A stretch of DNA of 63,167 nucleotides, counting the filler, from Asterionella formosa (taxonomy: Eukaryota), in NCBI GenBank assembly GCA_002256025.1. It is 17 parts of 17 records of this genome, joined end to end, with 100 filler letters (N's around TTAATTAATTAA, not from the genome) between each part and the next. Parts side by side here need not be neighbours in the genome. Positions count along the whole stretch, not along the records: positions 7,469 to 11,099 come from NKIB01014011.1; 16 more parts are not named here. One strand, given 5' to 3'. Below, one piece after another: positions 1 to 29,737 of this stretch (its first letter is position 1; every line of letters begins with the position of its first letter). The position numbers were made by a program, and so were the translations under genes. A model generated the notes under the pieces. The model did not search any database and had not been told where the DNA came from. It saw only the letters and a list, made by a program, of their open reading frames with translations.

Positions 1-429
1 GAGACATGCAATGCTCAACGATGCTCAACAAGTACCAACGGTGCTTTATTTCCAATCTGGCAGGCTATTGTAATCTCTACAATCAACAATGACTTAATTA
101 TGTGTCTACAACATCAACTACTACTACTACGTGTGCTGAATTCTACAGTGTGAATCTTCCTCTTGCATGTGTTATTCTTTGCCAGTTCAGATCAAAGAAA
201 TATGTCGGAGCTGAAAAAATAATAAGTGAATCGGAATTGGCGACTCTTTCGTTCATTATATGGTGAAAGCAGCATAATATTGCGGCAGAGCAGCATAATT
301 TCGCTTTTAAACTGTTGCAATGGCTAGTTGGTCAACATATATTGTCACGAACACACATAATTATTGGTGTGATCACATAATTATTCGATAAGTGAAATAA
401 ATTTTTGTTTAACCCGAATAAATTAGGGA

Positions 430-561
430 AAAAGTAGCATAATATTTCAAAAAAGTAACATAATATTTTAGAAAAGTAACATAATATTTTAAAAAAGTAG
501 CATAAATACGTCACTTTACACATAAATTCGAAAAAGTGCCGTAAACGGCGTCTTAGATGTA
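430..561. repeat. Four 21-bp tandem repeats plus the terminus (..CTTAGATGTA) of an unclassified non-autonomous DNA element
   Basis: AAAAGTARCATAATATTTYAR units at 430, 451, 472 and 493 (last partial). The ~40 bp ending at 561 resemble the ends at 30087 and 33920. Confidence 0.6.
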
Positions 562-756
562 GGACCAGCATGCATTTTGGTCATCCTTGAGTGGGTAATC
601 CTTGTCTGGAATATGTCGAGTTTTTCCCATCCAACAAGTTGTGTTGGATATTGCTTTGTGATCACAATTTTATGTGGCACCCTTCGATAGCGCTATTTAC
701 AACATTAGGTTCAGTATTCTCCCCATCGCCTGTTTGTTAGGAGAATTAGTCGATAA

Positions 757-2455
757 ATTGCTCCAAGTTTTCGAGTTTTGTCTCTTTTGCAGGTCAGAAA
801 GCCGCTCTTGTTTCGTATCGTCATGCTATTGTCCTCGAAGATCACTTGATTACCCTTGTCAATCATTCTTGAGACACTGATGATGTTCTGCTTGAACTCC
901 GGTGCATAAAGCACATCGGTGAGTTTCAAGGGTTTTCCTTCGTCCATAGTCGCCCGTCAGGGTCACGGTACCAGAGACAGTTGATTCTATCTCAGTTCCA
1001 TTCCCTACCATGACCGTTTCACTCACTTGTTTCTTGTATTCCATCATGCGCACATTGGTGCAGATGTGAACAGAAGAACCGCTGTCTAACAACCAGCGAT
1101 TTCTGACGTCACGAGCGAGGTTGACTTCCTTGTTGTAACTAATTTCGACACACATGGGTATGAACATTCCTTGCTGGGTAGATGTAGTCATGTTGTTCTC
1201 TTCGCTTTTATTATTTTTAGATACACTGTTTCTGGTGCACTCGCTTGCGTGGTGTCCCATGCGTTAGCACTTGAAACACTTGATCGTTTTCCTCTTTTCT
1301 TTCTGCTCAGGAGTGAGCTCCTTCTTGTTGGCACTATTGCCCTTGCTTGCTGCGACAGTCAGCTGCCTTGTGGCCATACTTGCCACACTTACGACAGTCA
1401 CCTTTGAACTTCCCATTCGTGTAGAAGGCCTGTTCACTCTTGTTCTTGTTAGTTGTTTTGACATCATCCCGGACATATAGATCGTAGTAATCCCGGATGT
1501 CTGTCTTAATCTCTTCGACCGTTAGCGTGTTGTGCGCCAGGCCAAACCTTCCTACTACCAAACTCTTGTAGCTCTCTAGTAGGTTGTTGATCATGTGTGC
1601 CACATAGGCACCATCCGAAACGGCAGAGCTCATATTGCCCAATCATTCCCGGATATGATCCAACTCCACATACCAGCTGTAGGGGTTCTCGTTTTCCCCT
1701 ACTAGAGTGCACTTCGTCCATTGGTGGGACAAGGCAATGACATTCGCCATGTTGCCTGACTCATGAGTAGAAATGAGCTTGTCCCATGCTTCTTTAGCAT
1801 TGCCATTAGGAAACTTGGCACTTCTTGCATTATTTATGTGTCCAAATGCATGGTCCACTCTGGCATGCCATTATCAAACTTGCGTAAGCAACTGTGTTGT
1901 TCCTTCGGATGCATTTCTCGTCAGCATCTGACAACACGGTCGTATCGCCCTTTAGGTCTTTCTCTCCTCTTGATAGTTTGTCACCATTAAGTATTCCTTG
2001 AAAGATCTTGTAGCACGCGTATGAGAGAAACTTCGCTTTCCACATGTGCCATTTAGCATCTTGCCCATCGAATGTCAGCAACCTCACTGATGTGTCTTTG
2101 TCACTTCCCATCGTTCCTGAGTAGCCTTTGGCCTTCAAAGGTGTGCTTTAAAGTGTGTTGAAAGGTCTCGTACTCCTTCCTGTCTGACGGGTTCCTCTTA
2201 CGTAGGACTTACCTGTTATACCACTAGTATTGTTATCTTCTTTCTGCTGCTAGCCTTTGTGCTAGTTTTCGCTATTGACCTGCCTTACTATGTCAATTCT
2301 CACTGTGCGTTTCTTAATTATAAGCTTAAACTAAAACTAAGTTTCAATCCCATTCATTGCACTTCAAGAACCTTTTCTTGGTGTTCCCTTTTTGTTGATG
2401 TAAAACTTCTTCTGATTGATCTAAGACATCAATCTTGTTAGCAAGCTTCTTGACA
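757..2455 (-). mobile_element. Degenerate Ty1/copia LTR retrotransposon: 5' LTR, gag, protease, 3'-truncated
   Basis: Broken frames give a gag N-terminus (TFDGQDAKWHMWKAKF), zinc knuckle CRKCGKYGHKAADC, a second knuckle and protease WLLDSGSSVHIC. Close paralog of 46950-48310. Many stops and frameshifts. Confidence 0.93.
2291..2455 (-). repeat. Putative 165-bp 5' LTR
   Basis: Bounded by 6-bp inverted termini TGTCAA (2291) and TTGACA (2450-2455), just upstream of gag. The same AATTGACA end is at 11328-11335 in the sister copy. Confidence 0.6.
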
Positions 2456-2782
2456 TGGGAACACACCATTTGACTAATTGGACTTTAGTTGAGTCCACAG
2501 TCCTGGTGACTCAATATGGCCATTTTGATGCTATGTATACCTTATCGTCCTCGCTGCAAACTGTACCTGGAGGTGCGCAATAAGAAATGGATAGATTCTC
2601 CGGGTTTCCCCGCGCCAATTACGGTACTTCTATGCTCATGTTTTCGTCCGAACAAGCAAATTGGTCTTCCGGTATACATACTGTTACCTATTTGCTTGTA
2701 GTCGTATTGAATCAGTTTCATCCGCCCGGAGTTAGCATCCAGAAACAGGGAGACAATCATCGAAGCCATCTCAACGACGGAA

Positions 2783-3635
2783 ATGGAAAAAGAAAGCGCT
2801 TCTCAATCTCGAAGCTCCCAAAATGATGAGGGAAAGGACAACGAGCAAATAACCCTCAATGAACTCCTTCAGTCAACGGTATCTTACAGCAAACCTCGAG
2901 CCAACCGCACAGAAACTGTTCGCATCATTGACGCTCTCACGAGGGAAGGTATGCGTCCTTCTCCTTCCAGCCTATTCGGAAATGGCGCCATGCTTGTATC
3001 GGACATTCCTGGGAGTGCTTTCAAGGAAGGTGTTAACATGGGAATTGACGAAGCTGGCCGTGGTCCTGTCCTTGGTCCAATGACTTACGCGGCTGCATTT
3101 TGGGCAAAATCCCAGGATTCCAAAGTTCCCCATGGCTTTAATGATTCCAAGCAACTGACCGCCGACTCGCGCGAGAACTTATATCGGCAAATAATGACTT
3201 GCTCTGAAATGGGCTTTGTCTTACGGGTCCTACATGCATCAGAAATTTCCCGAAACATGCTTCGCAAGGAGCCATACAATCTCAATGCAATGTCACATGA
3301 TGCCGCTATGCAAATGATTCAGGTGGTTTTGGATGCTGGGGTCAAGATCCATAACTGCTACGTCGATACCGTGGGGAGTCCAGAAGCCTATCAAAGTAGA
3401 TTGAACAGAGTCTTCGCCGAACATGACATCAACTTTGTCGTTGAGAAGAAGGCAGATTCGAAGTATGCAGAGTGCTCAGCTGGTTCTATTGGTACGTATC
3501 TTAGGAAAAATTGAATGTCATGCTTTGGCCATTGGTATTTTTGATGAGACTGTGTGCCTTATTGCTAAACTTTCCACACTAATTGCACTTGAAATATATT
3601 TATTTCAATTCCATTCATTGCAGTTGCCAAGGTGG
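2783..3635 (+). CDS. RNASEH2A: Ribonuclease H2 catalytic subunit A, 3'-truncated by contig end; exons 2783-3491 and 3624->3635
   Basis: Motifs GIDEAGRGPVLGPM, DSKQL, LNAMSHD, YVDTVG, KKADSKY. Removing the GT-AG intron 3492-3623 restores the conserved SAGSIVAKV. Confidence 0.93.
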
Positions 3636-3735
3636 NNNNNNNNNNNNNNNNNNNNNNNNNNNNNNNNNNNNNNNNNNNNTTAATTAATTAANNNNNNNNN
3701 NNNNNNNNNNNNNNNNNNNNNNNNNNNNNNNNNNN
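3636..3735. other. Artificial contig linker N44-TTAATTAATTAA-N44, first of 16; others start at 7369, 11100, 14834, 18564, 22292, 26019, 29738, 33457, 37175, 40892, 44609, 48322, 52034, 55746, 59457
   Basis: Identical 100-bp structure recurring every ~3.7 kb. The core puts stop codons in all six frames. Contig lengths fall from about 3635 to 3611 bp. Confidence 0.98.
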
Positions 3736-3791: not shown

Positions 3792-5009
3792 AATCTATTG
3801 ATTTTTCATCAAATGCCATAGATGGATCACTACCAAGTGAACTGGGTCTATTGACAAGTGTTACATATATGTCTGTATCTATTAATCAGCTTACTGGACC
3901 AATTCCAATGGAGCTTGGACAGTTGACCAACATCACAACGTTGTCATTGTATAGAAACAAGTTGACAGGAACACTTCCACCAGAAATTGGCCAATGGGCT
4001 AACCTTGTTGTTAAATTGTTTCTACAAAATAATATATTTCAGGGACCACTTCCGACAGAGATTGGATTGTTGACAAAACTATCAGCATTGTATATGAACT
4101 ATAATGACTTCACTGGTCCACTTCCTTCAGAAATTGGATATTTGACAAATCTCATTGATTTTAAAGCAAATTCCAACCGTCTCTTTGGCACAGTTCCTAC
4201 AGAGATTGGATACCTGAGAGGTCTAACAACATTGTATCTATTTTAAAACCAGTTGACTGGTCCTCTTCCTTCAGAAATTGGCTATTTGACAAATCTCATT
4301 GATTTTAAAGCAAATTCCAACAGTCTCTTTGGTACACTTCCTACAGAGATTGGATACCTGAGAGGTCTAACATCATTGTATGTTTATTAAAACCAGTTGA
4401 CTGGTCCTCTTCCACCAGAAATTGGCTTTTTGAAAAATATCATTGATTTTAGAACAAATTCCAACCGTCTCTTTGGCACAGTTCCTACAGAGATTGGATT
4501 CTTGACAGGTCTAACAGTATTAGTTCTTTGGGAAAACCAGTTGACTGGTGCACTTCCGACAGAAATTGGCAATTTGAAAAATATGGCATTATTTGCTGCA
4601 AGCACAAACCATTTCAATGGAACACTTCCTTCAGAAATTGGATTCTTGACAAGTCTTACATTATTGCATCTATTTAATAATCAGTTGACTGGTGCACTTC
4701 CAACGGAAATTGGCAATTTGACAAGTCTCAATAATTTTCAGATTCATTCCAATATGTTTACTGGTGCAATTCCCACAGAAATTGGTCTCATGTCATCATT
4801 GAGTAAGTTTAGTTTATCTGAAACTGACATTTCTTGACCATTTGTTCTAAAATTTCACTTTCTTGACAGCCACATTAAATTTTGGAAAGAACAATTTTAC
4901 AGGGCCAGTTCCAACAGAAGCATGTAATATTGCAACAATAATTTTTTGCCCACCGCTGATTTGCAACTGTGGTAGCTACTGTTCCGCAATTAAGCTCGAT
5001 TGTGATTAA
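3792..5009 (+). pseudogene. Leucine-rich repeat protein (24-aa plant/stramenopile-type LRRs, Cys-rich C-terminus), 5'-truncated, with two in-frame TAA codons
   Basis: Repeated LxLxxNxLTGxLPxEIGxLT. TAA at 4244-4246 and 4388-4390 without frameshift. Intron 4803-4869 (GTAAG..CAG) joins a last exon ending ..CPPLICNCGSYCSAIKLDCD*. Confidence 0.85.
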
Positions 5010-7368: not shown

Positions 7369-7472
7369 NNNNNNNNNNNNNNNNNNNNNNNNNNNNNNNN
7401 NNNNNNNNNNNNTTAATTAATTAANNNNNNNNNNNNNNNNNNNNNNNNNNNNNNNNNNNNNNNNNNNNGATC

Positions 7473-7672
7473 CAGTAGGTAAGCGAATGACGCGACGATA
7501 GCTAGAGCGGGAATTGCCTCAACATTACCCTTCCGGCGCCACTCGTACGGTCAACCTACTCGCGCCACCCAGCCTCGAACACATGTATACTCGCAGGCAA
7601 GTAGCCGCCGAGAAGGGTACTGTTGAGGCAATTCCCGCTCTAGCTATCGTCGCGTCATTCGCTTACCTACTG
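7473..7672. repeat. 200-bp foldback (MITE-like) with ~61-bp inverted arms
   Basis: CAGTAGGTAAGCGAATGACGCGACGATAGCTAGAGCGGGAATTGCCTCAACA-T-TACCCTTC matches the reverse complement of ~7612-7672 with one mismatch. Confidence 0.9.
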
Positions 7673-8557
7673 CCCACGAATTTAGCATAAATGTCAATTT
7701 TAGCCTACTATTGCCCATCATATAAAATCTATTTCGTATATTTCCTATCTTCACCTCGAAAATTGCCGAAGGTCTGATATTGCCCATCATAAAATATATT
7801 TGGATATTTCATATGTTAGCATTTTGGCAAGACAACAGACGTCAATTGCCCCTCGGTTTTCCAGCCCTGGGATTGCTGAAATCGGCAAGGGGTCTACTTA
7901 AGGGAACCATTTTATATACTATACAGATTTGATTATAATATATCTAGTATTCACCAATCTGTTGTAATATACATCGATTTTGTTTGTTTCCTTAAATGTG
8001 AGAGCGGAAATACAGCTTTGACACAGTAAATCATTTACCATCATGCCTCATTTGAAGCAAAATGTGTTCCTTGATGACTCCAGTAGCGACTCGTCTTCAA
8101 ACGGATGTGGTTGGTTGTTGGACGACTCGTCTTCTTGTGGAATTCATGTAGTGACATCATACCCACTTCGTTGCAGTGGTGCCAAAATCGCTATTCCCAA
8201 TTCAATTGATCTCAAAAAGTCTCATAATTCATCATCTGATCTGTTGGATACTGACGAATCGGATGATTGCTCATCAATAATATCATTGATTGGACTGTTG
8301 GGGAACAAGGCAAGATTCATGGGTTGCGTCGGTAAGAAGTCCATTTTGTGCCATCGTTGTCACATTTTTGGTGCTATTTTCAGACGTTATGTTCAGTTAT
8401 TCTTCAAAAATTTATTTTTTAGTATGTTTTCTACGTGAAGATCAGATATGATGTCTCGGAAGCAAGTTTGAGAGTGCTTTTTATGATGCTCTAAAATATA
8501 TAGTTGCTCTGTTTTAATTCAATCTTATTACAATTCTAACACGCTGATTATTCTACA

Positions 8558-9320
8558 ATGACAATGGGAACTAGAAGCCGTCGTTTCTCTCAAAGAGCAG
8601 TGACAAATACTGCTAAGCGCAAAGTGCAAGATGATAACCGGCGTGCTTCATTGGCAATGTGTACACTAGAAAGGAAAAAGAAGCTTGGGAATGTTGTTGA
8701 TTGGTGTGTCCTTCCGCCTATGCTGGCTGACCGAATTGTCGATTTCATCCTAACATACTATTCAATTCATTACATTCTTCAGTTTATTGGAACGGAATGA
8801 GGTTGTTGCAAATGCTGCAAGTATTCTCGAAGCAGCCATTGAAGCTGCGCCTGGCTGACTGGAGTTCCGCCTCATGTTGTCCAGCTTGCTGCAATTGAGC
8901 AGATCAAGACCATTGTTTCAGAAATACAGCCAGGAGTGTTAGAAGGTGTCGAAAAAATGTTGGATGACCGTACCATGGGTGGGACATTATCAGAGACTAG
9001 AATGAAGTCCATTTTGGAAGAAAGTCGAAAAAAGTTTGTTGAGGAGCTAGATCAAAGGATGCCAACAACAGCAAACAATACTATGCCATGGTCAGCTACT
9101 GGCAATGGTACAGATCATACTGAATTGATGGGTGAACACAAAATTTGGATTCACAAGGGAAAGTTTAGACGGGTTCCTCCCAACTGGAAATTCCCAAAAT
9201 GCGGCCTCCTTGTTGCATACAAACTATGGCACACAAAGGATACAGTGTCGGGGCAGTGTGCCATGAAGTTTTTGAAGCCCATGGATGTTGATTTTTTGTC
9301 AAGAGGTTTAGGTGAATTAA
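8558..9320 (+). mobile_element. CryptonS-like element remnant; C-terminal region kept, recombinase core absent
   Basis: LTGVPPHVVQL (from ~8856) and HKGKFRRVPPNWKFPKCGLLVAYKLWH resemble the conserved C-terminus of stramenopile CryptonS proteins. No catalytic motifs visible. Confidence 0.55.
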
Positions 9321-9524
9321 TTATCTTAAAAATTCATATAAATGCTATTCAATTATTGAAGTAGACATACCGGTACTATATTAGCTATATAATGAAATTT
9401 CACGAGGTGAAGCATAATATCAGTGCTTTCTGTATTAGGGTTGTATGGGTGGGTGTGGTCTGCCCGAGGTAGAAGTCATTCTCGTGTGTACATTTTGTAC
9501 TGACCAATTTTTAGGTGTCGGTTT

Positions 9525-9703
9525 TGTTAATATCCGCATATGATGCTCCATACATGCGCCGTACGAACCATACCGGCGCAGCCACCAGATTAGGTACATG
9601 CATGAGTGCTAACAACGATGTACTTGGAACAGCAATAGAATAGTCATAATATTGTAGTTCACCTTTATTCACGATAAGGTTCCCCTCAACAGAACTACAA
9701 TAT
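9525..9703 (+). repeat. Putative 5' LTR ending ..CTCAACA at 9691 and atypical PBS at 9692-9703
   Basis: Copia-like CAACA end 148 bp upstream of gag. The next 12 nt are complementary to 9649-9660. The 5' boundary (TGTTA at 9525) is a guess. Confidence 0.5.
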
Positions 9704-9838
9704 CTGTTCTTTCTCTCTTGTCCGCACCTGCGAAGTTGCGGCTCTTGTCGACAGTGCAAACCAGCACTGGTCTCAACAATCAACCGTCCAGCACCGCTTG
9801 CCCGTTCGCTGTCCCTGTCTCTCAGGCCTTCTTCCACC

Positions 9839-10927
9839 ATGACGACTATAATCGTTTCCGCTGTTTTCCCCTTCCCTCATCCGCTCTTGACGCCGATCGA
9901 GGGCAAACCTACAGCCTTCACTGTAACCCGCCTTCGCAAGGAACTCTTTGCCAACGCTCGCTCTGTCCACTGTACCAGTGGTGGTGGTGCCAATGGTTTC
10001 CTTGGTATTGTCATGGCTGCTGCTCCTTATCTTTTACGTGCCGGTGAACCCTTTGTACCGCCCGAACATCTTGGCATCCAGCCGACACACAGTGCTACTG
10101 CAACACAGTCCCAAATCACTGCTGCCAACCGTCTCTTTGACACCTCCCTTGACGCATTCCGCCGTTACTCCCAAATCCGTGAAATTCTCCGACAACAAAT
10201 TCTAACAGCCATTGACCCAACCTACTACAACGTTCTGGAAGATGCTACATTTGGATATGCAGACATCACTGTTCTGACCTTACTTGCTCACTTAGAATCT
10301 ACATATGCAACATTGAGTGCGGATGATTTGGAACTCAATCGCATGCGCTTGGCCGATGCTTGGACACCAGAGGAACCTATTGAGCATTTATGGATCCGCA
10401 TCAAACATCTTCGTGCCATTGCTGCTGCTGGTGGGGAACCTTTCTCTGACAGTACTGTCATGCGATTGACTCTTTCTGCTTTAGAACAGGCTGGTGTATA
10501 TTCTCATAGCATTCAAACTTGGCGTGATCGCGCTGAGCTGGACCGTACATGGGTTAATTTTTGCCCACATTTCATGCATGCTGATAAGGAACGATTGCGC
10601 CTTGCCACCGCCACCACTGCCGGTTATCATGGTGCCCATGCTGCCATTCAAACCAGTGGCCCTCCCCCATTGCCAGCTATTGCTGCCGCTGCTCGTGCTG
10701 TCCCTTCTGGATACACTTACAACAATGTCCAATTAGGCTATTGTTGGACTCATGGTCTTACCAAAAACCCTGACCATACCAGTGCAACTTGCAATCATCC
10801 AGCTTCTGGCCATCAACTCAATGCCACCCTTGATCGACGTCTGGGTGGCAGCGTCCGTCTGTTCAGTGATGGTCCCCGTCCTACCCGGCCACCCCGTGTT
10901 TCACCGCCACCTTCACCACTTGCTTGA
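9839..10927 (+). CDS. Gag-like protein of a diatom-type copia retrotransposon (intact 362-aa ORF)
   Basis: LTPIEGKPT..ELFANARSV..GGGANGFLG start and C-terminal YCWTHG..HTSATC..H..AT..GG Cys/His motif. Followed directly by an aspartic protease motif. Confidence 0.8.
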   Translation: MTTIIVSAVFPFPHPLLTPIEGKPTAFTVTRLRKELFANARSVHCTSGGGANGFLGIVMAAAPYLLRAGEPFVPPEHLGIQPTHSATATQSQITAANRLFDTSLDAFRRYSQIREILRQQILTAIDPTYYNVLEDATFGYADITVLTLLAHLESTYATLSADDLELNRMRLADAWTPEEPIEHLWIRIKHLRAIAAAGGEPFSDSTVMRLTLSALEQAGVYSHSIQTWRDRAELDRTWVNFCPHFMHADKERLRLATATTAGYHGAHAAIQTSGPPPLPAIAAAARAVPSGYTYNNVQLGYCWTHGLTKNPDHTSATCNHPASGHQLNATLDRRLGGSVRLFSDGPRPTRPPRVSPPPSPLA

Positions 10928-11099
10928 TGTGGAGGGGAGCAAGTTGCTGCCGATAATACTATTAACACAAAGTTATCTCCCATCACTTGTCCCCCCGTCA
11001 CACTCATTGCTGATTCTGGTAGTTCTGGCAATTACGCCACTGTTGATTTACCTGTCATCAACAAACGACCTACCACCAACCCTATCACCATTCAACTTC
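10928..11099 (+). CDS. Start of pol (aspartic protease), in frame with gag after TGA, truncated by contig end
   Basis: Stop-free frame CGGEQVAADNTINTKLSPITCPPVTLIADSGSSGNYATVDLPVINKRPTTNPITIQL. Catalytic DSG at 11012-11020. No ATG, so it is missing from the ORF track. Confidence 0.75.
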
Positions 11100-11199
11100 N
11101 NNNNNNNNNNNNNNNNNNNNNNNNNNNNNNNNNNNNNNNNNNNTTAATTAATTAANNNNNNNNNNNNNNNNNNNNNNNNNNNNNNNNNNNNNNNNNNNN

Positions 11200-14100
11200 A
11201 GTGGAAACTCGAAGAGAGTCTTAGAACGACTTTGCGGGAAGCAAAGATGCATGGAAAGGAAACATTTAGTTTAGCTTAAAATTTAATTTGAGTTTTAGAT
11301 TATCAACCAAGAACGAAACAGTGTGTTAATTGACAGGAAGGTCAATTAGTCTATCTAGCAGGAAGGCTAGAAGCAGAGACAAGAGAGAAAGTAAGTGGTA
11401 CTAGGTAGTACTACGAGCACGTAAGAGTCTACGTGAAGAGAGACCCAGCCTGCGGGAAGGAGTACGGACCATTTCAACACGTTTTAAAGCGGATAGGTTT
11501 GAAAGGGTGGTACTACTCAAGATGGGAATTGATGACGAATCGCCAGGAGTGCAGTTGCCAACATTTGATGGTACCGATGCCAAGTGACATGTTTGTAAAG
11601 CGAAGTTTGTGGCCTATGCCTGCTACAAAGGTTTTGAAGGAATCCTAAGTGGAGATGAAGTATCACCAGGTGAGAGCAGAGATTCAGCTGGAATGAAGAT
11701 TGTCCCAAGCGACAACGCACAATGAGAAGCGTGCGAAACGAAATAATATGGTTGCCTATGCAAGTTTGATTATGGCATGTCAGAGTGGACCATTTGGATA
11801 AGTAAATGGTGCCAGAAGTGAAGAGTTCCCCAGTGGAAATGCGAAGGAAGCGTGGGACAAGTTAGTGTCTACGTACGAGTCAAGTAATATGGCAAATGTG
11901 ATTGCATTGTCAGGTCAATGGACAAAATGCACGATTAACGAGAGTGAGAACCCCAACTTTTGGTTTGAGGAGTTGGATAGAATTCGAGAACGATTGATCT
12001 GTACGAGCTCCGCAATTTCGGATGGTGCCTATGTGGCCCATGTTATCAACAACCTACCGGAAGTCTACAAGAGTTTGGTGGTTGAAAATTTTGGTCTCGC
12101 GAGCTCCGAGCTCACGATCCAAGAGGTTAAGAAAAATGTACGCAACTATTACGATTTGTATGTGCGTGACGAAAACAAGACGAATAAGAATGGCGAGCAG
12201 GCCTTCTTTTCAAAGAGCAAGTTTAAGGGAGACTGCAGGAAGTGTGGCAAGTATGGTCACAAGGCAGTTGATTGCCGAAGCAAGGACAATACTACAGAAA
12301 AGAAAGAATTAACTCCCAAGCAACAAAGTAAGAGAAAGAATGTGAAGTGTTATAATTGCCAGAAGATAGGGCACTATGCCAGTGAGGGCAACAATCAACA
12401 AACTGCACCAATCAAGCAGAAGGGAGAAGACGCCAATACCACTACGCAAGGAATGTTCGTGGTGACGTGTATTGAGGCAAGGTACAATGAAGAGGTAAAT
12501 CATACATGCATGCATAAGGACTGTTAGCTACTAGACAGTGGTTCTACGGTACATATATGCAATGATGAGCGCATCATGGAGGACAAGCGCACAGTGCGTG
12601 AAACAGTACTTGTTGGAAACGGAGCAGCAATTGTTGCGACCGAATCAGGCACGGTGACCCTAACGACGACAGACAAAGGAAAAGTGTTGAAACTCACCAA
12701 TGTGCTCTATGCACCGGAGTTCAAGCAGCAGAACCTTATCAGCATTTCGAGAGTTATTGACAAGGGAAACAAAGTTATGTTTGATGATGATAAGATGACG
12801 ATCAGAAACAACAACGGATTTTTGATCTGCAAACGTGATGAAACGAGGACGATTGGCGCAATGTACCATGTGCAAGGAACGCCTATTCTAAAGGAAACAG
12901 TGTTGAAGGTTGAACAAGAAAGCTAGGAGCCAACACAACAATCTATCGACTATGATAAAGAAGACAAGAGTGAATGGACGAAAGTAGAAGACGACAAAAG
13001 CGATTAGTGAAACGATCGAGAAAAGAAACGCTAACGAAAATAATGATGTGATTGTGGAAATAAATGAAGCGCATGAAATGCTTGGACATGAAGGAGAAAA
13101 ATGTCTTCTTGAGGAGACATCTAAATTATTTGGGTGGAAACTTGTGGGAAAATTAAAGGCGTGCGCAGGATGCGCAGCAGCCAAGGCGAAAGCACGCGCA
13201 GTACCCAAGATGACGCAAGAGAATGTGATGACGCAGGTGAGAACTCCAAGCAACTAAAGAAAGTATGTGAAAACCAAGGTGTCAAGATGGAATTTACGGC
13301 ACCTCATACTCCGCAGCACAATGGTGTTGTGGAATGTGGTTTTGTTACAGTGTGTCAGAGAGCACTCGCTATGATGCTAAGTGCGAAGTTTACAGATGAA
13401 TATCAGGGGCTATTGTGGGCAGAAGCGGTACATACTGCGACAAGATTGACGAACAGTACAGTGAATTCAGTGACTAAGAAGAGTCCTGATGATGTGTTCT
13501 ATGGAGAAACGAATACAAGGCGGCCTGAAGCTCTACAGGCAATTTGGACATGTTGGTTGGGTTACTATAAGAGAAGGTGACAATAAATTAGATGCACGTT
13601 CCATCAAGTGTGTCTTTTTGGATACTCAGATGACCACTCCCAAGATATGTATCGCATGTATAATCACGAGACAAGTACCGTGATCATTACACGTGACGTA
13701 AAGTGGAGTGAGTGGCATGGAACAAATGTACCAACGGATGGACTAGAGAAAATGTTCAAACCAGTCACCAACCAACAGGCAGGATACGAGGATAACAGTA
13801 CGAGAAGATAATGAAGAGTTACATGACGATTTTTATGACGAGTTCGAAACTCAAGAAGTGTCCGACAATGAAAATGAAGACGATGAGACAAGCAAGAATT
13901 GGGGAGGAAAACTAAACAATCAACTAAGATAGATGGTACTACGAAATACAAAGATACAGGTACCAATACCCCAATTGTGAAGACAACACGTGCGGAAAGC
14001 GCTCAGTCTAAGCAAGCGAAGTTAGCACGTGAAATGCGAAGATTGGACTCATCGTTCAATCCTACGAATACGAAAATTATGAAATTTTCAGGAGATACTG

Positions 14101-14833
14101 AGATGCCTAGTGTTATCGAGGAGGATGACATAAAAGAAGTTACGAAGAATACAATACGAGAAATTGACCGGTATGAAAATTAAGTCATATGCAATGCCAG
14201 GCGCACCAGGAAAGATATTGAACAAGAATGACGGTGAAGTCATTATGGAAGGAGAATATCGAAAAATTGTGGGCAAGTTACTATGGTCTACAAAGAAGGA
14301 TTTGCCGGACTGTGCAAGTGCGGTTCGGGAATTATCGGCTCATTTGAGCTGCCCAGGTGAAGAACAATGGCGTGTAGTGGCAAGAGTTATTGGTTACCTA
14401 TCCAATATGGAGGATAGAATTCTCAAGTTGCGTAAGCCAAAAGAGTTAAGAGTCATTGCCTACGTGTACAGTGACTGGGCTGCTAATAAGGTTAACAGGA
14501 GGAGTACGACTGGCTATCTTGTTACTATTGGTGGGGCACTTATCAGTTGGCAGTCGAAAGTACAAAAAATGGTTATGCTGTCTTGCACGGAAGCCGAGTA
14601 TGTGGCGATGTCCCAGTGTGGACAAGAGATCAAGTTCATAGCAATGCTACTGAATGAGGTTACTGGTGGTAAGGTCATGTTACCAAGTATCCTACGAGAA
14701 GACAACACAGGAGCTATTTTTATCGCGAAGAATCAGAAAATTGGAACCAGTACAAAACACATTGATATTAAGTATCATCATGTAAAGGACATGATTGAGG
14801 ATGAAGAATTGGAGGTCATTTTTATAAGGTTGG
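11200..14833 (+). mobile_element. Degenerate Ty1/copia element: LTR end, gag, PR, partial IN, partial RT, RNase H
   Basis: Two knuckles, LLDSGSTVHIC, integrase HHCC region plus EFTAPHTPQHNGVVE, RNase H SDWAA..RRSTTG..TEAEY..EDNTGA..KHIDIKYH. Order PR-IN-RT-RH. Internal deletions near 13225 and 14150. Confidence 0.95.
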
Positions 14834-15139
14834 NNNNNNNNNNNNNNNNNNNNNNNNNNNNNNNNNNNNNNNNNNNNTTAATTAATTAANNNNNNNNNNN
14901 NNNNNNNNNNNNNNNNNNNNNNNNNNNNNNNNNGGTGTGCAAACCAGTAGTACCTGGTAGTAAAGTGCTGCTCCAGCAGTATGGTGCTGCCGTCATTGAC
15001 AGGGCAGAACCGATTTAGCGCTACTGTTGGTAATATACCAGCATTGCTCCTAGTAGCTACTACTAGTATACAAATGACCAGTATACTGACTCTCACTCAA
15101 CAAAATTCGTTATTTTCGATTTTGTTTTTGAACTCATTG

Positions 15140-16127
15140 TCGTTCGTCTTCTTGATGAGTTCGACGCCTTCTTTCGCAGTTTCTTCGTCGTCATAGATTG
15201 TAATCGTCACCCCGACATACATTCCGGTTTCTTAGTCTTTATCGTTTTCGTCTTTCTTATTTTTCTCAGGGCAATCTTTCGCAATGTGTCCAGCATACTT
15301 ATTACAATTGAAACATTTGACTCCTTTGCCAAGGGCTTCATCGTCTTTTGCTCGTTTCTTGTTCCCACCACCAGCAGTGTTTGCTTTTGATCGGCATTCC
15401 GCTGCCTTGTGTCCCTGCTTTCCACAGTTGTGACAGTTCCCTATAAACTTTCCTACGACAAACAAAGCGAATTCGTCTTCATTCTTGTCTGTTGTCATGA
15501 ACTTGCGCTTGTAGAACGCCCTGATCTTAGCCTTGATCTCCGTAAGCGTCACGTTCTTTACTCCTTCAACCATAGTAATGACTTTGCTGTACTCTCCTGA
15601 AGGTTTGTCAATGATATGCGCGATAATTTTGGCGTCCTTTTTCTCGAAGTCGATATCAATCTGTATCATCCTGTTCCTGATGTTGTCTAACTTAATGAAC
15701 AATTCATCAGGGTCTTGTTTTGTATCCTTGAGGTTGCACTTGTTGAATTCCCCAGCAAGCTGAATCAAATCCGATGGTTCGTTGGGCGCATACCTGTCGT
15801 TAAGGTTCTTCCATCCTAAGAAAGCATCGCCATCGATTAGGTCGCTCCTTAGTCTTTGCATGATTTGCTAACCCAGCCAAAAGCGATTCCAGTACAGCTG
15901 AGGATTAAAAACTGGTAAGCTTTATCGTTATCCTCATACTTTTTCTTCTCTTCGTCGTGCGTCGAAGTCAAATAGACCGCATCTGAGCATGGTTTCGTGT
16001 CGTTGGCATAGACATGGCGAAACCCCTTGCTTTTGGCCAGAGCAAGCGCCTTCACGCTCCACTCATGCCAATGGTTTTCGTCTCCATCAAACTTGATGGT
16101 TCCAACTTTCTCTTCTGTTGTAGTCAT
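15140..16127 (-). mobile_element. Ty1/copia gag relic of another family
   Basis: KFDGDENHWHEWSVK start, UBN2-like gag core, knuckles CHNCGKQGHKAAEC and CFNCNKYAGHIAKDC. Frameshift near 15870. Confidence 0.85.
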
Positions 16128-17109
16128 GCTACTTATCTTTTGCTTTGTAGATACAAAGGTTTGTTTATAAATGTGTTAATGTACCTAGTACTCTTGAGTA
16201 GTATATGTCTAGTATACTTATCTCTCAACTAGCTATTTCTCGTGATCTACTACTTCTAGATCTTTAGTAAACGTCAGAAACTCACTTTCTGCTTTACTTC
16301 ATTGTGAGCTTTCTACTACTTAGCAAGAGCTCCTTCCTAAGATCCATTTTCGATCTTTCAACTTCTACTTCAATCATCTCGTCATCGTCTTTACCAAAAC
16401 AATTCTGTGGTCCCTGGGAGCCACATTTACTATGATAACACATAGTTGGAGCATAATCATAGTTGCAGTCACTTTTGTGACTCGACTCAAGTGATCCCTT
16501 CACTATTTGTCAACATGTGTCTTGAAGGTTAAATGCACGGTGCAATGCTGCAAAAATACGTTTCAGTTGCTCGTGCTGAGTGAGGAATCACAAAAACCCA
16601 ATACCAGTACACGGAGTCGGGAGTGGTGTGTAGGCCGATAGTTAAAAAATTTCGTATGTATGTACGGGTAGCAGGTTTACCGATACCCAAATCACGCATT
16701 GTGAGGAAGCAAACAGGAATACCAGTAGTGGGTGCCATAACTTCTTGCTATGTAATACCGGTATATCTACGGTACCAGGTATTGATTTTAATGTATGTCC
16801 GCGCAGCATCAGTACACTACCTGGTAGAATATTGGTAGTCGATTCTGCTTCTGCCTCTCAGTCAAATATACGGCACCGCTACAAACCCATTACGGGTTCT
16901 TTCCGGCTCGACAGGCTGACATCAGTCTCCCTTTGCGGCCCGATAAGAAAGCCTTAACATCTCCTTCCTTTAACTTTATATACATCGCTGCATAGTACGT
17001 TTTCGCCTGAGTAAAAGGGCTATATATGTTAAAGAGAAAGAATTGAAATTTGAACTAGTAATAATTAGTCGTGAGCCAGTCACAACATGAAAAATTCCAC
17101 AGACACATA

Positions 17110-17900
17110 TCAGTCTGGACTGGAAGGACTCAATACTGCTTTCATGGAATGATGTAAACAACAGTCAACACAATGATAGACACCCATGGAACATATAGTA
17201 CAACATGTCTGAGTCTTTCTTTTGCAGGCTACACATGTAGTTTGGGGGTGGGAACTGTCAGCATCCACAACCTCTGTCCCGATAAATTTCTTGCCTTTAG
17301 GTAGCCGGAAAACTCTGTGCTCAGCATTTTTTGTCAATCTCGATGACCTTCGAGGCGATTCTTCTTCTTCTTCTTTGTAATAAGGATTACATACCAATGC
17401 CTCTGCCAAAAGCTTGCGAAAACCGAGCATGCCATCAACCTTCTCCTTGCAGAAGCAAGTGTTTATATGCCGTTATGGCATTTACTTCCGTGACTGACAA
17501 GATGAATGCGAACACTCTATTTGGCCATTTCGTCGCCCATACCACCTCCAAACTGATTGGGGAATGCCTTTTTGCATTATGGTCGTCAACAGCATGCCGA
17601 AACTTGTAGTGGTTGTGGATAACCTCTGTATATGTAATATTTTTTTGGCGCTTTGTTCCTTACAGCTCAGTCGCATCAGCATCATCCACAGTCCCGGGAG
17701 TTGTGACCACAATGGCCATCACCTCTTTACCTCTAATTTTCTTGAGCTCCCTCTGCAGAACTGTCATTCCTTCAAGTCGATGACCTTTTCCAATGTTCAG
17801 ATGATGATTTCGGACCAATAGTGAGGGTTGAATGTACTTTGATAGGCATGAAACGACGGCACCGTTGCCCATGGTCAATTTTCGTTTTCGCGCCATCCTG
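17110..17900 (-). mobile_element. piggyBac-like transposase relic, internally deleted
   Basis: Across frames: EVIHNHYKFRHAVDDHNAKRHSPISLE..WPNRVFAFILSVTEVNA..FRKLLAEALV and a Cys-rich tail CVAC..CCTIC..CVDC. The N-terminus is joined almost directly to the C-terminal part. Confidence 0.75.
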
Positions 17901-18667
17901 CACAAACATTTTTGAGATTTTTTCGGCTGTAGGCTTCTCATGTATCTGAATTTTTTAAGCCTATAAGCTTATTGCCATGCATACCTTCAGAAACCTACAG
18001 TTCTGTAGATTTAGATAAACTTTTCAGAAATGAAATATCCGTTGAATTGATCTAGGGGCAAGGGTTTGAAACCCAGACTGAATCCAGTCTATTAGACTGA
18101 AATCAGCCTAGCCGGAAAGAATCCAATAATTAATACCTAGGTGTTACAGATTAGTCCAGATATCTGGACTAAATGCAAGTGTCCAATCCATCCACGAAAA
18201 GGGCAAAAAGCGATGACTTGAACGGACAGATAAAATCATCGTTGGCGAAAAACCTTGGTAGACACACCTTCTACATACATCCTGACTAAATAGACTTTGA
18301 AACAATAAGCTATAATGGTAACGACCTCGTCAAACGATGTCTCGTTGTGATGCCTTTTTTCAAAAGTTGAACTTCATCCAGGTATCAGGTATCTGGACCA
18401 AATCTGGACCTCCTCCTGTCGCTGGTTGTAGAAAGCTAACGGGTGCCATGTATAGTAGAATAGATTACTACTTTTACTTTCAAACGGTTCAATGGCGTAG
18501 CTGCTCCAAGTAGAACAGATAGCTCAAACAATGCTTGTATTTTTGCATTGGACGTGACCAAGTNNNNNNNNNNNNNNNNNNNNNNNNNNNNNNNNNNNNN
18601 NNNNNNNTTAATTAATTAANNNNNNNNNNNNNNNNNNNNNNNNNNNNNNNNNNNNNNNNNNNNGCAT

Positions 18668-22441: not shown

Positions 22442-25400
22442 ATGAGCGAGCCAATTGATCTTGGCCTGGACTCTGACGAGGATCACCCTCGTCGATTAAT
22501 CGCCCTGCCCGGAGACGAGAAGCACTTGCTTGCGTTCGGAGGCAATGATGGCACAATCTCACTCATTGACGTTGAGTCGTTGAAAGTGAGTACAGCACGT
22601 CAATTCGATGATGCAGTTCGAGATGTTGCATTTTCCCGAGATGGGGAAAGAGTCGCGGTTGGTCTCGATGACGGATCTACTCAGATCTTTCTCTTTACCG
22701 ATGTCAGTTGGACCGACAAGGAGTCCTTGCACCCCTTTGTTACCAACAAGGCCACAGACGATTTTCTCTCTCAGGATGTCTCAGAGACGACCTTTCAAGG
22801 ACCACGTTTTGACGCCCCTGTTCGATCGCTTCAATGGGATCCTCGATCCAACATGCTGGCGATTGCCTCCGAAGCTGGCATGTGCGTTATCGATGCGACA
22901 TCCAAAGACACCATTTCTTGTAAGGACCGTTTCTTGCAAGAGGCTGCTGACAAAGAGCACTCGAATGCTGGAGTTCGAGGCCTTTCTTACTACTCCCATG
23001 AATCTCAGACACTTCTTGCTTCTATTGGCCTAGACGGTCGTCTTTGTATTTGGGATGTTACCGGTGATGATCCAGCTTTGGACTATGAACTCCTGCACAG
23101 AGATGATCACAAGTGTATCCTCAAGGCTGACGTAGGCGAGTTAAACGGATCTGATGCGCTGGACCGATCGTGCCTTCCTGTCTTTGGTAAAACATTCCTT
23201 AGCTTACCAGGAAACACAGATGTACAGGTTCGCAGCGCTTCAAGGGTAGAGAAGCAATTTTTTTTGACAAGCCTAGACGCCAAGGGGCACATCGAGACAA
23301 TTGTGGCCTTAGCAGTCAGCAATGACAATAAGAACATTGTGACTAGCGGGAGAGACGGTCGTGTAAATTTATGGGAAATTCATGATAAGGTATGTTCACT
23401 GTGGAACCCTTTGGCATTCTGTTTTCCCATCCGAACCTATACACTCAACCTTGATTCTTCGTTTTTTTTGAACCACTAGGAGAATATTTTGTCGGGTTCA
23501 TTTGTCCGGATGCTAGGTCACTTTTACTCTGTCCCAACCCATATGGTTTGGAAGTCAACTGCACTCTGTATGGTCCATGCAAACGGCACATTTTCGAGGA
23601 TTACAAGTTTTGAAATCTTTCCTACAGAGAAGGTTAAAGCAAAATTGTTGCCAGCCAATGACGATGAAACTGCTGTCCACAACAGACTTGACAAGAATTC
23701 TGTAGCTGCAAGTGCTGATTCCGACGATGATATTGATTTCGAAGAAAATCTTTGTCCTTCCATGAAGAATAAGAAATTGCTAGTCATGGACGAGGCCGAT
23801 GAGGACGACGACAACTCGACGGCTGCCGAGCGACCTCAGCACTCAACCATGGACGATGCAGATGACATTGATGACGGTTACGGTGACGATTTAGATGATT
23901 TCTTAGAGAATGACATGCCTGTCCGACCCACAAGAAGCACTCTGATTTATCGCGTTGAGCCTCAGCCCGCGTTTGCCCCCTCGTCCACTCCCCTGGACCT
24001 CCCCCGTCGGATTCTGTGCTGGAATCATGTTGGAGCTTGCACCCTTCTCCGTGGTAACGATGGAAACATGAACAATATCATTAATATTGATTTTACAGAT
24101 TCTGCCTTCCGACGTCCAGTAAGTTTCACTGACAACATGCATTTTATTTTGGGATCGCTGGGTGAGGATGGCGGTATTTTTGCGACTGATTTGGCGGACG
24201 ACGATCGCAACAGTGACGATGTGGGGAAGTTGGTGGATGAGTTGAACATGTCGGAAAGAACCAAGGCTGCCGTTCGTCGCAGTCAGAGCAAGCGTATGAA
24301 GACAGACAACGAAAGCGGTAAGTGTAGCGGGTCCAGTATTTACTTTCACCGGTTTGAAACGTTTGGCTCGCTTCGAGACAAGGATTGGTATATGACGTTG
24401 CCTGACGGTGAGCGAGCTTTAGGCTGTGCTTCAGGGGAGGGGTGGGCTGCAGTTGCAACAAGTCGCCGGTTTTTGCGTTTATTTACTTCTGGTGGAAACC
24501 AGGGACAAATCTTGTGGTTGAGGGGTGAACCCGTCGCGTTGGTTGGACGGTCTCGATTCCTCGCTGTGTTTTATCATGAGGCCACGCCGTTGCATGATGG
24601 AACTCAGAAGTTGGGATTCATGCTCTATGATGCTAAGGCTGGATGCGTGATTACATCTGGTTCCCTCGCTTGCATTAGCTCCCGTTCTTCGTTGTCGTGG
24701 GCGGGTTTCAGTAATGACTTCTCCCTCTTGGTGATGGATTCGGATGGTATGGTTTCGATACTTGTTGGCATGGAGTCTCCGAATGTTAATCAGGGTATGC
24801 CGGTAATTTTATCTTCTTACACTTGGGAATGGTCACCACTACTAGACACTATTGGCTTGCGCAAATCTGTGGATGACTCCTTCTGGCCAGTAACATCACA
24901 AGATGGTAAACTTGTGTGTGTTCCACTAAAAGGTGGCATCGACCATCCAGATGCCAGTCGCCGTCCCGTCACGACCACTTTGAGCTTCCGCATGCCTTTG
25001 GCTCGTGGTCTCTTGGAGAATAGTAGTGTCCTCGAGGAGGCATCTGTGAGAGCCAATCTGGCTTTGACTCAGAAGAAGTTCTTGACCGATGTGACTGCTT
25101 CAGATGGACTTGATACCCATGATATGAAAGCTGAGTACGATCACTTTTGTGCCAATGTTGACAAGGTAACACTCAAGCTTTTTCATGCCACTGTCTCTGC
25201 CGGGAAACTGGAACGTGCTCTCGACCTCTGTGAGAGACTACATTTGGAGAAGAGCTTCGAGATCGCTAGCCGTGTTGCTGATATGGCCAATTACCGCAAC
25301 CTTGCGGATCGCATTGATGAGGCAAAGGAAAGAAAATACCCCATTGATATGAAGCCATTCGACGATGTTGATCTCCATGGCGAAGTTGGCCACAAAGACA

Positions 25401-25699
25401 GTGACTTTGATGAGGAATCTGGTTCACAACGAATCAGTCCCGAAAATGACCGCTTACGCAACAGATCCTTTGATGACATTCCAGACAATGAAAAGGTACC
25501 CGATGAAAATACGATGTTTCATAACAACAAGAGGAGACGAAAATCAAATCCCTTTGCCAAAAAGCGTCTCGAGAGCCCAGGGAAGAAGAACAAGTTTTTA
25601 TCGCCCCACCCAAGTCCATCCAAGACTTTAGCCCTGTCTAGGTTGTCTAGTTTCAGTGCGCAATCCAGGGAGATTCGGTCTCCCAAAAACATATTGTAG
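22442..25699 (+). CDS. CTF4: Ctf4/And-1/Mcl1 replisome hub protein (WD40 + SepB domain), ~1055 aa; exons 22442-23389 and 23480-25699
   Basis: N-terminal WD40 repeats, acidic linker, QPAFAPSSTP..RRILCWNHVG, WAAVATSRRFLRLFTSGGNQ, LSWAGFS, FWPV and a helical C-terminal region. A 90-nt phase-0 GT-AG intron (23390-23479) fuses the two ORFs. Confidence 0.92.
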
Positions 25700-27200: not shown

Positions 27201-27752
27201 ACTTTCAGATAAATCCTTTCTGTGATGACAAGCAAGGAGAAACAAAAATGCCTGCCTGTTTCTTCCAGAGGAACCGGCCCACAACAGAGTCCTTCTTGTT
27301 ATCTGGAAGCGAAGAACAAGATTCACAGAGTCAGATGAAGGCTGGTTTTTAACAAACAAGACCTTTTTACATTCCATATCAAACAAAGCATGTTCAAGTT
27401 CAAACGCAGGGCGAGGAACACCAAGGAAGAGAAGGTTATACAGCCACAGTAACCACAACGAAAGAACAATAGAATAAGAACAAGAAAAATGACAGCAAAA
27501 ACAGCAGGGACAGCGGTAACGACAACGAGAACACAACCATGATAGCAGAAAAGACGACAAAAACGACAACAATAACAATAACAATGACAATAATTTCATT
27601 TTACCATGAATGTGATATTTTGTTCCTTTCATTCCAGCAGCTGCTTTTCGTTAAGAAAACTGGCGCGGATGGTCCTCCTCGCCACCACTCATTTTGTACT
27701 AAATTTTTGTACATTGTACTTCAGAAAAAGCTGGCGCAGTCTATGCTTAGTC

Positions 27753-29737
27753 AGTATTGATCAAATTCGTCATCAGGATGCGTAAAATTTTCGGTGCTTG
27801 CTGTGGACTGATGACCAGTGCTGTAGCAACATAAATTCCAGTTCATTTCTTCCTCAACCAATTTGATGCCGATTTCTATCTAATATATTATTTGATGTAC
27901 CCGAAATCAAAGGCTTCTTGTAAAATGTCGATATGCTCAGAACGAACGTATATCATTGTCCAAAGGAGGCATCAGGATGTGCAAATTTTAGGACCACTGC
28001 TTTAACAACCAAACTTCCAATTCATCTTTCTCTACCAATTCATTGTCAATTTCTATCTAGCATAGTATTCGATTTATACGAGATATCAATGCCAATATTT
28101 CGAATGTCGATATGCTCGCTCAGAACGAACATACATTGATCAAATTGCTCATCAGGATGGTGTGTAAATTTTCGGTACTTGTAGCTTGATCATTAGTGCA
28201 GTAGCAACAGAAATTCCAAACAACCCTTCTCAACCAATTGAAGACCGATTTCTATCTAGCATAGTACTTGATGTATACAAAATCAATGCAGTCGTGTCGA
28301 ATGTTCATATGCTCAGAACGAACGTATATTGATCAAAGGAGGCCTCCGGATGTGTAAATTTTCGGATACTTGTGGACTGATCATCAGTGCTGTGGTTGCA
28401 AAAATTCCAAACCATCTTTCTCCACCAATTTAATTCTAATTTTTATCAATCATAGTATTCGATGATCACGACATCAATGGCGTCATAATGAATGTCGATA
28501 AACTAAGAACGAACATATTTTGATCAAATTGTTCATCAGGATGTGAAATAAAATTTTCGGTGCTTGTGGACTGATTATAATTCCAGTGGCAACAAAAATT
28601 CTTAACCATCTTGCTCCACCATTTTACGGCTGATTTATATCTAGAAAAATATTGGATGTACACGAGATCAATGCCGACATATATTGATCAAATTGGTCAT
28701 CAGAATGTGTACGATTTCGGTTCTTGTGGACTGCTGCATGACCAGTATTCCAAACCAGCCATCTTTCTCTACCAATTTAAGACCGATTTCTATCAAGCAA
28801 AGTATTCGATGTACATGAGATCAAAGTTGCAATGGACAATGTCGATATTCTCAGAGTGAACATATATTGATCAATGGAGGCACCAGGATGAGTAAAATTT
28901 TCGGATGCTTGTGGACTGATCATCAGTGCTGTGGCAAAAAAAATTCCAAATCTCCTTTCTCCACCAATTTAAGGCCGATTTCTATCCAACACAGTATTCG
29001 ATGTACACGAGAGCAATACCGTGATGGCGAATGACGATATTCTCAGAGTGAACATATATTGATCAAATTGATCATCGGGAAGGTTTGTAAAATCTCGGTG
29101 CTTGCTGTGGACTGAACATCAGTGCTGTGGTTGCAAAAATTCCAGACCATCTTTCTCCACCAATATAAGGCCGATTTCTATCCAGCACAGTATTCGATGT
29201 CCACGAGATAAGTGCAGTCATTTTGAATATCGATATTCTCAGAACGACTATATATTGATCAAATTGGTCATCGGGAAGGTTTGTAAAATCTCGGTGCTTG
29301 CTGTGGACTGAACATCAGCCAGTGCTGTGGTTGCAAAAATTCCAAACCATCTTTCTCCACCAATTTAAGACCGATTTCTATCCAGCATAGTATTCGATGT
29401 ACACGAGATAAGTGCCGTCATTTTGAATATCGATATTCTCAGAACGAACATATATTGATCAAATTGGTCATCAAGATGTGTAAAATTACGGTTCTTGTGG
29501 ACTGCTGCATGACCAGTATTCCAAACCATCTTTCTCCACCATTTTAAGACCGATTTCTATCAAGCAAAGTATTCGATGTACACTAGATCAAAGTCGTCAT
29601 ATTCGTCATGAACAATGTCGATATTCTCAGAACGACTATATATTGATCAATGGAGGCATCAGGATGAGTAAAATTTTCGGATGCTTGTGGACTGATCATC
29701 AGTGCTATGGTTGCAAAAATTCCAAACCATCTTTCGC
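27753..29737. repeat. Satellite array of ~11 diverged monomers of ~165-200 bp, running off the contig end
   Basis: Anchor TATATTGATCAA-like at ~27753, 27951, 28132, 28325, 28516, 28680, 28863, 29055, 29251, 29451, 29639. Conserved blocks GTGGACTG, TTCCAAACCATCTTTCTC, CCGATTTCTATC, AGTATTCGATGT, CTCAGAACGA. Confidence 0.93.

Follow-up and report, generated by a model that had tools for sequence, protein, structure and literature searches.

Probable Tf1-like self-priming in a Ty1/copia-type LTR retrotransposon from Asterionella formosa

To our knowledge, self-priming of reverse transcription in LTR elements has been proven for Tf1 and Tf2 only, and it has been predicted for a few further lineages, including the plant copia lineage TAR. 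During replication of LTR elements, the 3' end of the minus-strand primer sets the end of U5. For RNase H to cut an RNA duplex is a special property, one demonstrated in Tf1. According to the accessible text of PMC7175516, the Tf1 mRNA's initial 11 bases, counted from +1, pair with the primer-binding site, and cleavage by RNase H falls between bases 11 and 12. The corresponding portion of Neumann et al. 2019 (PMC6317226) predicts self-priming for 12% of plant LTR elements, including Ty1/copia TAR (Houba, Osr-1), crediting an earlier proposal for TAR to its reference 62; the prediction is made where the 5' LTR holds a complement of at least 10 bp to a region starting 0–5 bp past the LTR. Fungal GalEa elements, as described in the accessible text of PMC5445492, have no tRNA-type site and carry after the LTR a palindromic 'Conserved Hairpin Site', for which no complement in the LTR was found there. 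The copia elements of diatoms, or CoDi (Maumus et al. 2009), have LTRs of 153–844 bp, with 163 bp in Blackbeard, and gag and pol are separated by at most one stop or frameshift; primer binding, tRNA and priming go unmentioned in the main text of the paper (PMC2806351). Within the portions of text that it covers, a full-text literature search turned up no earlier account of a self-priming copia element from a diatom or alga.

The whole stretch of DNA analysed here (the window, 63,167 bases) consists of 17 contigs of 3,611–3,635 bp each, arranged in descending length and joined by linkers of the form N44-TTAATTAATTAA-N44 (at 3636–3735, 7369–7468, 11100–11199 and so on). Because the window is built from separate joined contigs, features on either side of a linker are not physically linked. 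A copia-like element lies within the piece 7469–11099, where the contig end truncates it inside pol. Neither a second LTR nor another copy of the element was found in the window, either by a direct-repeat search over 9525–9691 or by blastn of the piece against the window. From the evidence assembled below, we consider it probable that 9525–11099 represents the 5' portion of a Ty1/copia-type LTR retrotransposon with Tf1-like self-priming. Its features are as follows:

9525..9691, + strand: 5' LTR, 167 bp; TGTTAA..TCAACA, an imperfect terminal inverted repeat with TG..CA ends
9645..9649, + strand: CATAA, initiator-like, putative transcription start (+1 would be T9647); motif match only
9649..9660, + strand: 5' arm, proposed self-primer; its 3' end, C9660, would supply the priming 3'-OH
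9661..9680, + strand: inner hairpin, ACCTT (9661–9665) / AAGGT (9676–9680), part of the minimum-energy fold
9686..9691, + strand: LTR 3' terminus TCAACA, mirroring the TGTT(A/G)A of the LTR start; loose contig ends fall at 9691
9692..9703, + strand: 3' arm, proposed primer-binding site, 0 nt after the LTR, without a TGG start
9704..9838, + strand: untranslated leader
9839..10927, + strand: gag-like ORF, 362 aa; CWTHG..H..C knuckle; no Pfam match; TGA stop at 10925–10927
10928..11099, + strand: start of pol with the protease motif DSGSS, in the frame of gag, ended by the contig end

The hairpin at the LTR junction is formed by 9649–9660 (ATATTGTAGTTC) and 9692–9703 (GAACTACAATAT), which are exact reverse complements over 12 bp. 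Both the perfect complementarity of these 12-nt arms and the lack of a TGG primer-binding site after the LTR-like end CTCAACA had been given in the preliminary description of this DNA; the arms were recovered at the same coordinates with the inner ACCTT/AAGGT stem, and CTCAACA ends at 9691 with no TGG next. As in Tf1, the inner stem would form a U5 stem-loop between the proposed primer and its site, and the hairpin at 9661–9680 resembles a U5-IR stem-loop. When folded as RNA, 9646–9710 (65 nt) reaches −15.2 kcal/mol with the 12-bp stem (z −5.23), a stability matched by 0 of 200 shuffles. Within the 63,167-base window, perfect matches to the 12-mer occur at the two arms and nowhere else, and a single one-mismatch site lies at 25691; the chance expectation for a 12-mer with at most one mismatch in the window is ~0.5 sites. 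Dinucleotide-preserving shuffles of the 167-nt LTR, scored for a complement in the LTR to sequence starting 0–5 nt past it, yielded a complement of at least 12 nt in 4 of 20,000 cases and of at least 10 nt in 64. The element falls under the definition of predicted self-priming in the accessible text of PMC6317226, its complement measuring 12 bp and starting at 0 bp. Across four public runs, no variant at a frequency of at least 10% falls inside either arm, and the variable positions outside the arms are 9600, 9602, 9611, 9625, 9627, 9672, 9732 and 9742.

The borders of the LTR were placed by comparison with relatives and with public data. A Gag profile built from a 10-sequence alignment was used to scan metagenome contigs and gave 36 loci (handles beginning with L), and the public runs (handles beginning with X) were compared over 9200–10300, where all four consist of assembled contigs. 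Homology of the window to L001, L002, L003 and L019 begins at 9524/9525. The DNA run X1 is possibly the sample that the window came from. Eighteen of its contigs enter at 9525 from the purine-rich tract of the element, ..CTGTTGGTGAGGGTG, 16 pass 9524 into uninterrupted flank, and 15 match up to 9691 and then run into differing flanks (agreement 0.49). Given the contig ends at 9525 and 9691 and the homology border at 9524/9525, the LTR is 9525–9691. An LTR end at 9691 had been claimed beforehand and set as a test of the reading, and it is at this very position that the 15 contigs of X1 diverge. Since the LTR ends at 9691, the minus-strand primer must bind from 9692 on, and this is the 3' arm.

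Other loci extend the description of the LTR. In L002, TGTTAATATC likewise comes after the purine-rich tract GGTGAGGGTG, and a motif search found such a tract immediately before TGTT in 17 of the 26 loci examined, with LTRs of 139–223 bp; the nine loci without a match are bordered by host flank or offer too short a stretch upstream. TG..CA LTR ends are present, and the 3' end of the copy in the window lies beyond its contig. No 3' LTR with host flank occurs among the 36 loci, most long contigs being circular permutations with identical terminal overlaps, and all 27 of the 27 hairpin instances in the loci have the binding-site arm next; the element's 3' LTR junction is thus known from public-run contigs alone. 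The length of a unit is ~5.4 kb plus one LTR. The ends of L001, L002, L007, L014 and L034 overlap their own starts by 91–739 nt (98.9–100% identical), for a unit of ~5.3–5.4 kb. Circularly permuted contigs of this kind could have arisen when two LTRs were collapsed in assembly, or could represent real one-LTR circles or tandem copies.

Upstream of the element, the 5' flank at 9422–9524 is, in run X1, a high-copy sequence in its own right, and contigs of X1, X8 and X18 continue from 9524 directly into other sequence (GACCTAAAATTC..). Contigs that run on past 9524 represent either the empty site or other copies of the repeat that hosts the insertion.

The Gag-like protein has 52 relatives in a large protein collection, all unnamed or called 'hypothetical protein', and the class of the element was read from full-length copies. 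L001, L002 and L003 are 98.7–99% identical to the window over 9525/9637–11099, with 98.7% for L002 over 9637–11099. The pol ORF of L002 (1292–5422) encodes 1,377 aa and contains an integrase-linked SH3_retrovirus domain at aa 441–497 (28.4 bits, cut-off 27), N-terminal to an RVT_2 match at aa 914–1030 whose 24.8 bits lie under the cut-off of 31.6. RVT_2 occurs in all the nearest ESM-Atlas clusters among those listed, one of which is named Ty1/Copia RNase HI family protein. With its integrase-linked domain before RT, L002 pol follows the Ty1/copia order PR-IN-RT-RH and departs from the order PR-RT-RH-IN of Tf1/sushi (Ty3/gypsy chromovirus). Judged by domain order, the element is a member of Ty1/copia and stands outside the Tf1/sushi clade. 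It had been called copia-like at the outset, which was right, by way of these full-length copies and not by way of a neighbouring contig.

In the window and in 20 of the 27 loci checked, gag and pol share one frame and are parted by a single in-frame stop (TGA, TAG or TAA); the remaining seven have premature stops or unclear gag-pol junctions. The first residues of pol are conserved as xRGEP or xGGxP. The recurrence of a single stop suggests programmed stop-codon readthrough for Gag-Pol throughout the family.

The other contigs of the window carry sequences unrelated to this element. Copia-like ORFs at 11802–14833 (Retrotran_gag_2, zf-CCHC, Pol_BBD) belong to a different contig and are not part of the element with the hairpin. 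Including the contig of these ORFs, unrelated copia-like elements occupy contigs at 11200–14833, 14934–18563, 44709–48321 and 1–3635 (Retrotran_gag_2, zf-CCHC, Pol_BBD, rve); 752–2138 and 46943–48314 are copies of one such element with 91–95% identity, and TGGTACTAGGTAGTACTAC occurs at ~11396–11414 on another copia-like contig. Two tandem arrays are present, one at 27740–29737 with a period of ~191–200 nt in 6–10 copies and one at 4047–4870 with a period of 72/144 nt. Ordinary eukaryotic genes on other contigs (2711–3511, 23480–25696 and 49776–51005) correspond to RNase HII, Ctf4/Mcl1 and, as a weak match, TAF10; Bacillariophyta make up most of the nearest Atlas cluster of the Ctf4 gene (23480–25696), which gives a lead towards a diatom host.

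The relatives allow the hairpin to be followed across the family. Of the 36 loci, 27 could be evaluated: L010, L015, L022, L032 and L034 come without upstream sequence, L018, L020 and L025 begin only within the hairpin or past it, and L013 has unrelated GC-rich sequence upstream. A hairpin is present at the same place in all 27 evaluable loci, with an exact stem of 9–14 bp in 26 and one internal mismatch in L021. The sequence of the 5' arm varies between subfamilies, and every variant is matched by its own 3' arm. The 5' arms are distributed as follows:

ATATTGTAGTTC: window, L001–L003
ATTGTAGTTC: L019
ATTTACGTAGTTC: L033
CGTCTAGTTC: L005, L008, L016; in L030 one base shorter plus a G-T
TATTCTAGCTC: L004, L006, L007
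ATTTACTAGCAC: L009
TTTATCTAGCTC: L011, L012, L014, L026, L021
TTTACTAAGCTC: L027, L028
ACTTATATAGCTC: L023
TTAGTCAGTTC: L024
AATTTAGTCAAGTA: L017, L029, L031, L035, L036

A junction-anchored analysis of 28 sequences (the 27 loci and the window) comprised 15 distinct arm pairs. Over pairs 1–10, 148 of the 150 cells are Watson-Crick, one is a G-U and one a mismatch, and nine of the ten stem positions occur with 2–4 pair types. Watson-Crick cells number 178 of 210 as observed versus 41–62 of 210 in register shifts, and none of 2000 permutations reaches the observed count. Pair counting on 15 representatives of the 28, in the trimmed alignment A6, found nine of the ten pairs of the outer helix changed on both sides and 99.3% of the cells paired, a result that none of 500 shuffles equals; slid controls are 25.6–40.4% paired. 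In the same representatives the inner helix is mostly conserved, with 83.1% of cells paired and a two-sided change at one pair. The outer stem belongs to the minimum-energy fold in all 12 relatives that were folded (z −3.2 to −8.1). Complementarity in relatives, with compensatory changes, had been named in the preliminary description as what this reading entails, and both were found, the former in 27 of 27 evaluable loci and the latter at nine of ten pairs. A TGG start is absent from all 15 binding-site variants, which differ at the bases that would face the 3' end of a primer (GAAC.., GAGC.., GTGC.., TACT..). Taken together, the covariation and the position of the arms lead to the conclusion that the site directly after the LTR pairs with the element's own LTR.

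Some loci depart from this regular picture. The imperfect copies L019, L021 and L030 look like products of decay after insertion. A repeat in L021, ATCTTATAG, was considered as the family hairpin and rejected as not homologous; the homologous stem of L021 is the one with a single mismatch. L012 was considered as a transcript-like contig and set aside as rearranged or chimeric: within 1–345, the first 74 nt are a second copy of the contig's leader and gag start (98.6%), fused there to mid-U3.

Near-identical copies of 9525–10500 were found in 20 of the 24 runs listed, from 16 studies and including 6 RNA libraries. The labels of these runs are algae and marine, estuary, river, lake and freshwater metagenomes, with one single-organism run. 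Such a habitat range is very wide for one element family at this level of identity.

The 5' arm lies close to a conserved motif that may mark the start of transcription. CATAA is the same in every one of the 27 aligned sequences and forms the border between the variable U3 and a conserved block: in the LTR alignment U3 has diverged, and conservation extends from CATAAT through the loop to the binding site. The accessible text of PMC4686930 gives an initiator-like consensus for Phaeodactylum, CAY+1A / TCAH+1W, present in 67.9% of 80-nt flanks; CATAA fits this consensus as stated there, which would put the putative +1 at T9647, 2 nt before the arm. Across subfamilies, the complementarity starts 1–5 nt past the putative +1 and is 9–14 bp long, and the first paired base has no consistent start-site context. 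This offset of 1–5 nt and the variable length of the pairing count against self-priming.

Contigs from RNA libraries were inspected over the same region. Record 10 of RNA library X15, a contig of 162 nt, spans 9570–9731 and thereby crosses the proposed start; it could be explained by DNA carry-over or by graph joining through R, and lends no support. Record 9 of X15 joins the interior of the element to 9525–9599, and assembled contigs cannot show RNA ends. A peak of summed depth in X18 (bin 9644–9680) was considered as a start signal and rejected, as it is absent in X15 and contig depth is no measure.

Tf1-like self-priming, which had been the preliminary reading and has gained support from the LTR end at 9691 and the compensatory arm changes in relatives, would proceed here in a few steps. 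Transcription would begin from, or just past, the invariant CATAA (9645–9649), and the first 12–14 nt of the RNA, with the arm 9649–9660, would fold back and pair with 9692–9703, a 31-nt U5 loop and a small inner hairpin closing the stem. By analogy with Tf1, the element's RNase H would cut after C9660. The 3'-OH of C9660, paired with G9692, would then prime synthesis, and the first base copied would be A9691, the last base of the LTR; priming from C9660/G9692 would thus explain why the arm abuts the LTR. The resulting strong-stop DNA, only ~31 nt long (9691 back to 9661), would transfer to the 3' R, and plus-strand synthesis would start from the conserved tract GGTGAGGGTG. Copying of the RNA primer into the plus strand would rewrite the binding site in each cycle, and such rewriting from the 5' arm would account for arms that are perfectly Watson-Crick, with a single G-U in 150 core cells. 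The dimensions implied by this scheme count against self-priming, for R and U5 together would be only ~43–46 nt and the strong-stop DNA ~31 nt, and so does its reliance on an RNase H able to cut an RNA duplex.

A different role for the hairpin has to be weighed against self-priming, namely that of a conserved structural RNA specific to the 5' end, acting in packaging, in dimerisation or in masking a 5' polyadenylation site, while another primer is used. Covariation demonstrates pairing and not priming, and because the 3' arm is outside the LTR the hairpin forms at the 5' end only, as befits a 5'-specific regulatory device. However, a structural role leaves the element in need of a primer from 9692 on, the position that fixes the LTR end, and no other candidate site is found there. 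The site does not begin with TGG and varies among subfamilies in step with the LTR, and a purely structural stem would not usually have so few G-U pairs as one in 150 core cells. We therefore regard a purely structural hairpin as unlikely.

Self-priming might also be achieved in another geometry, by the arm copy that the same RNA carries in its 3' LTR or by the arm of a co-packaged second RNA, with transcription starting downstream of 9660. If CATAAT is taken as TATA-like, the start would lie ~25–30 nt downstream, past the 5' arm, and only the copy of the arm in the 3' LTR would be present in the RNA; the arm is part of every 3' LTR. Against this stands the local hairpin, with its loop of 31 nt, for which folding predicts stability in every subfamily examined in this way. 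R would moreover fall below ~15 nt, and the conserved block starts at CATAA, as R-U5 should. Priming in this geometry appears improbable, and self-priming by the local 5' arm is preferred.

Alternatively, a cellular RNA could prime at 9692–9703, for instance one of the internal tRNA fragments used by copia, Ty5 and Osser, with the match to the LTR being secondary. Half-tRNA priming is known in Ty1/copia lineages, as noted in the accessible text of PMC6317226. A search for tRNA genes covering the 63,167-base window and the 36 loci found none. The 15 site variants, however, differ at the primer-proximal bases while each fits its own LTR, so that one conserved cellular RNA would be unable to fit them all, and no site has a TGG start. 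A cellular primer is thus very improbable. As for a chance inverted repeat, the AT-rich arms and the 12-nt complement in 4 of 20,000 shuffles speak for it, but all 27 evaluable relatives show the repeat again with compensatory changes, and this covariation refutes it, leaving a negligible probability.

Set against the described systems, the element shares with Tf1/Tf2 (S. pombe; Tf1/sushi, Ty3/gypsy) the apparent lack of a tRNA-type site, an LTR-adjacent site complementary to its own 11–12 nt at the presumed RNA start, and the U5 stem-loop between primer and site. In contrast to Tf1/sushi, it has the Ty1/copia pol order with integrase before RT; in contrast to Tf1, pairing here seems to start 1–5 nt past the putative +1, and the arms are only 31 nt apart. 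With plant TAR it shares the copia type and an LTR complement to the post-LTR site, as defined in the accessible text of PMC6317226, whereas its host is an alga, probably a diatom, its Gag has no Pfam match and its support comes from family-wide covariation. The short LTRs, the TG/CA ends, a length of ~5.4–5.6 kb and the one gag-pol stop are shared with CoDi, a likeness drawn by description from the accessible part of PMC2806351. Like GalEa, it is of copia type and has a hairpin where a tRNA-type site would be expected; unlike GalEa as described in the accessible text of PMC5445492, the partner of its site is inside the LTR and the arm is non-palindromic, which makes it a separate design. Because self-priming has already been predicted for plant copia TAR, the element would by mechanism be a member of a known self-priming class of LTR elements, and its novelty is below what the preliminary description had assumed.

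The known catalogue of priming mechanisms is therefore left unchanged, and no new kind of mechanism is proposed. What distinguishes the present prediction is the unusually clean comparative evidence on which it rests: 15 arm pairs, nine of ten positions changed on both sides, and almost no G-U. The family is of the copia group, with a Gag that has no Pfam match, and its transcripts and DNA occur in many aquatic metagenomes. With primer, loop and binding site contained within 55 nt, it offers a compact testable system. There is also a consequence for annotation, as site finders based on tRNA would call such elements devoid of a primer-binding site. More broadly, and as a tentative proposal that we would put at somewhat less than even, a copia-type clade living in many aquatic environments, and probably diatom-borne, may have abandoned tRNA priming for a minimal module consisting of an initiator, a self-primer of 10–14 nt, a U5 loop of 20–41 nt and a site rewritten in each cycle, with a strong-stop DNA of ~31 nt. 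Such a module may have arisen independently of Tf1/sushi and plant TAR, or may be the relic of an ancestral hairpin-primed LTR element, and the family provides a data point on whether hairpin priming in LTR elements is old or has arisen repeatedly.
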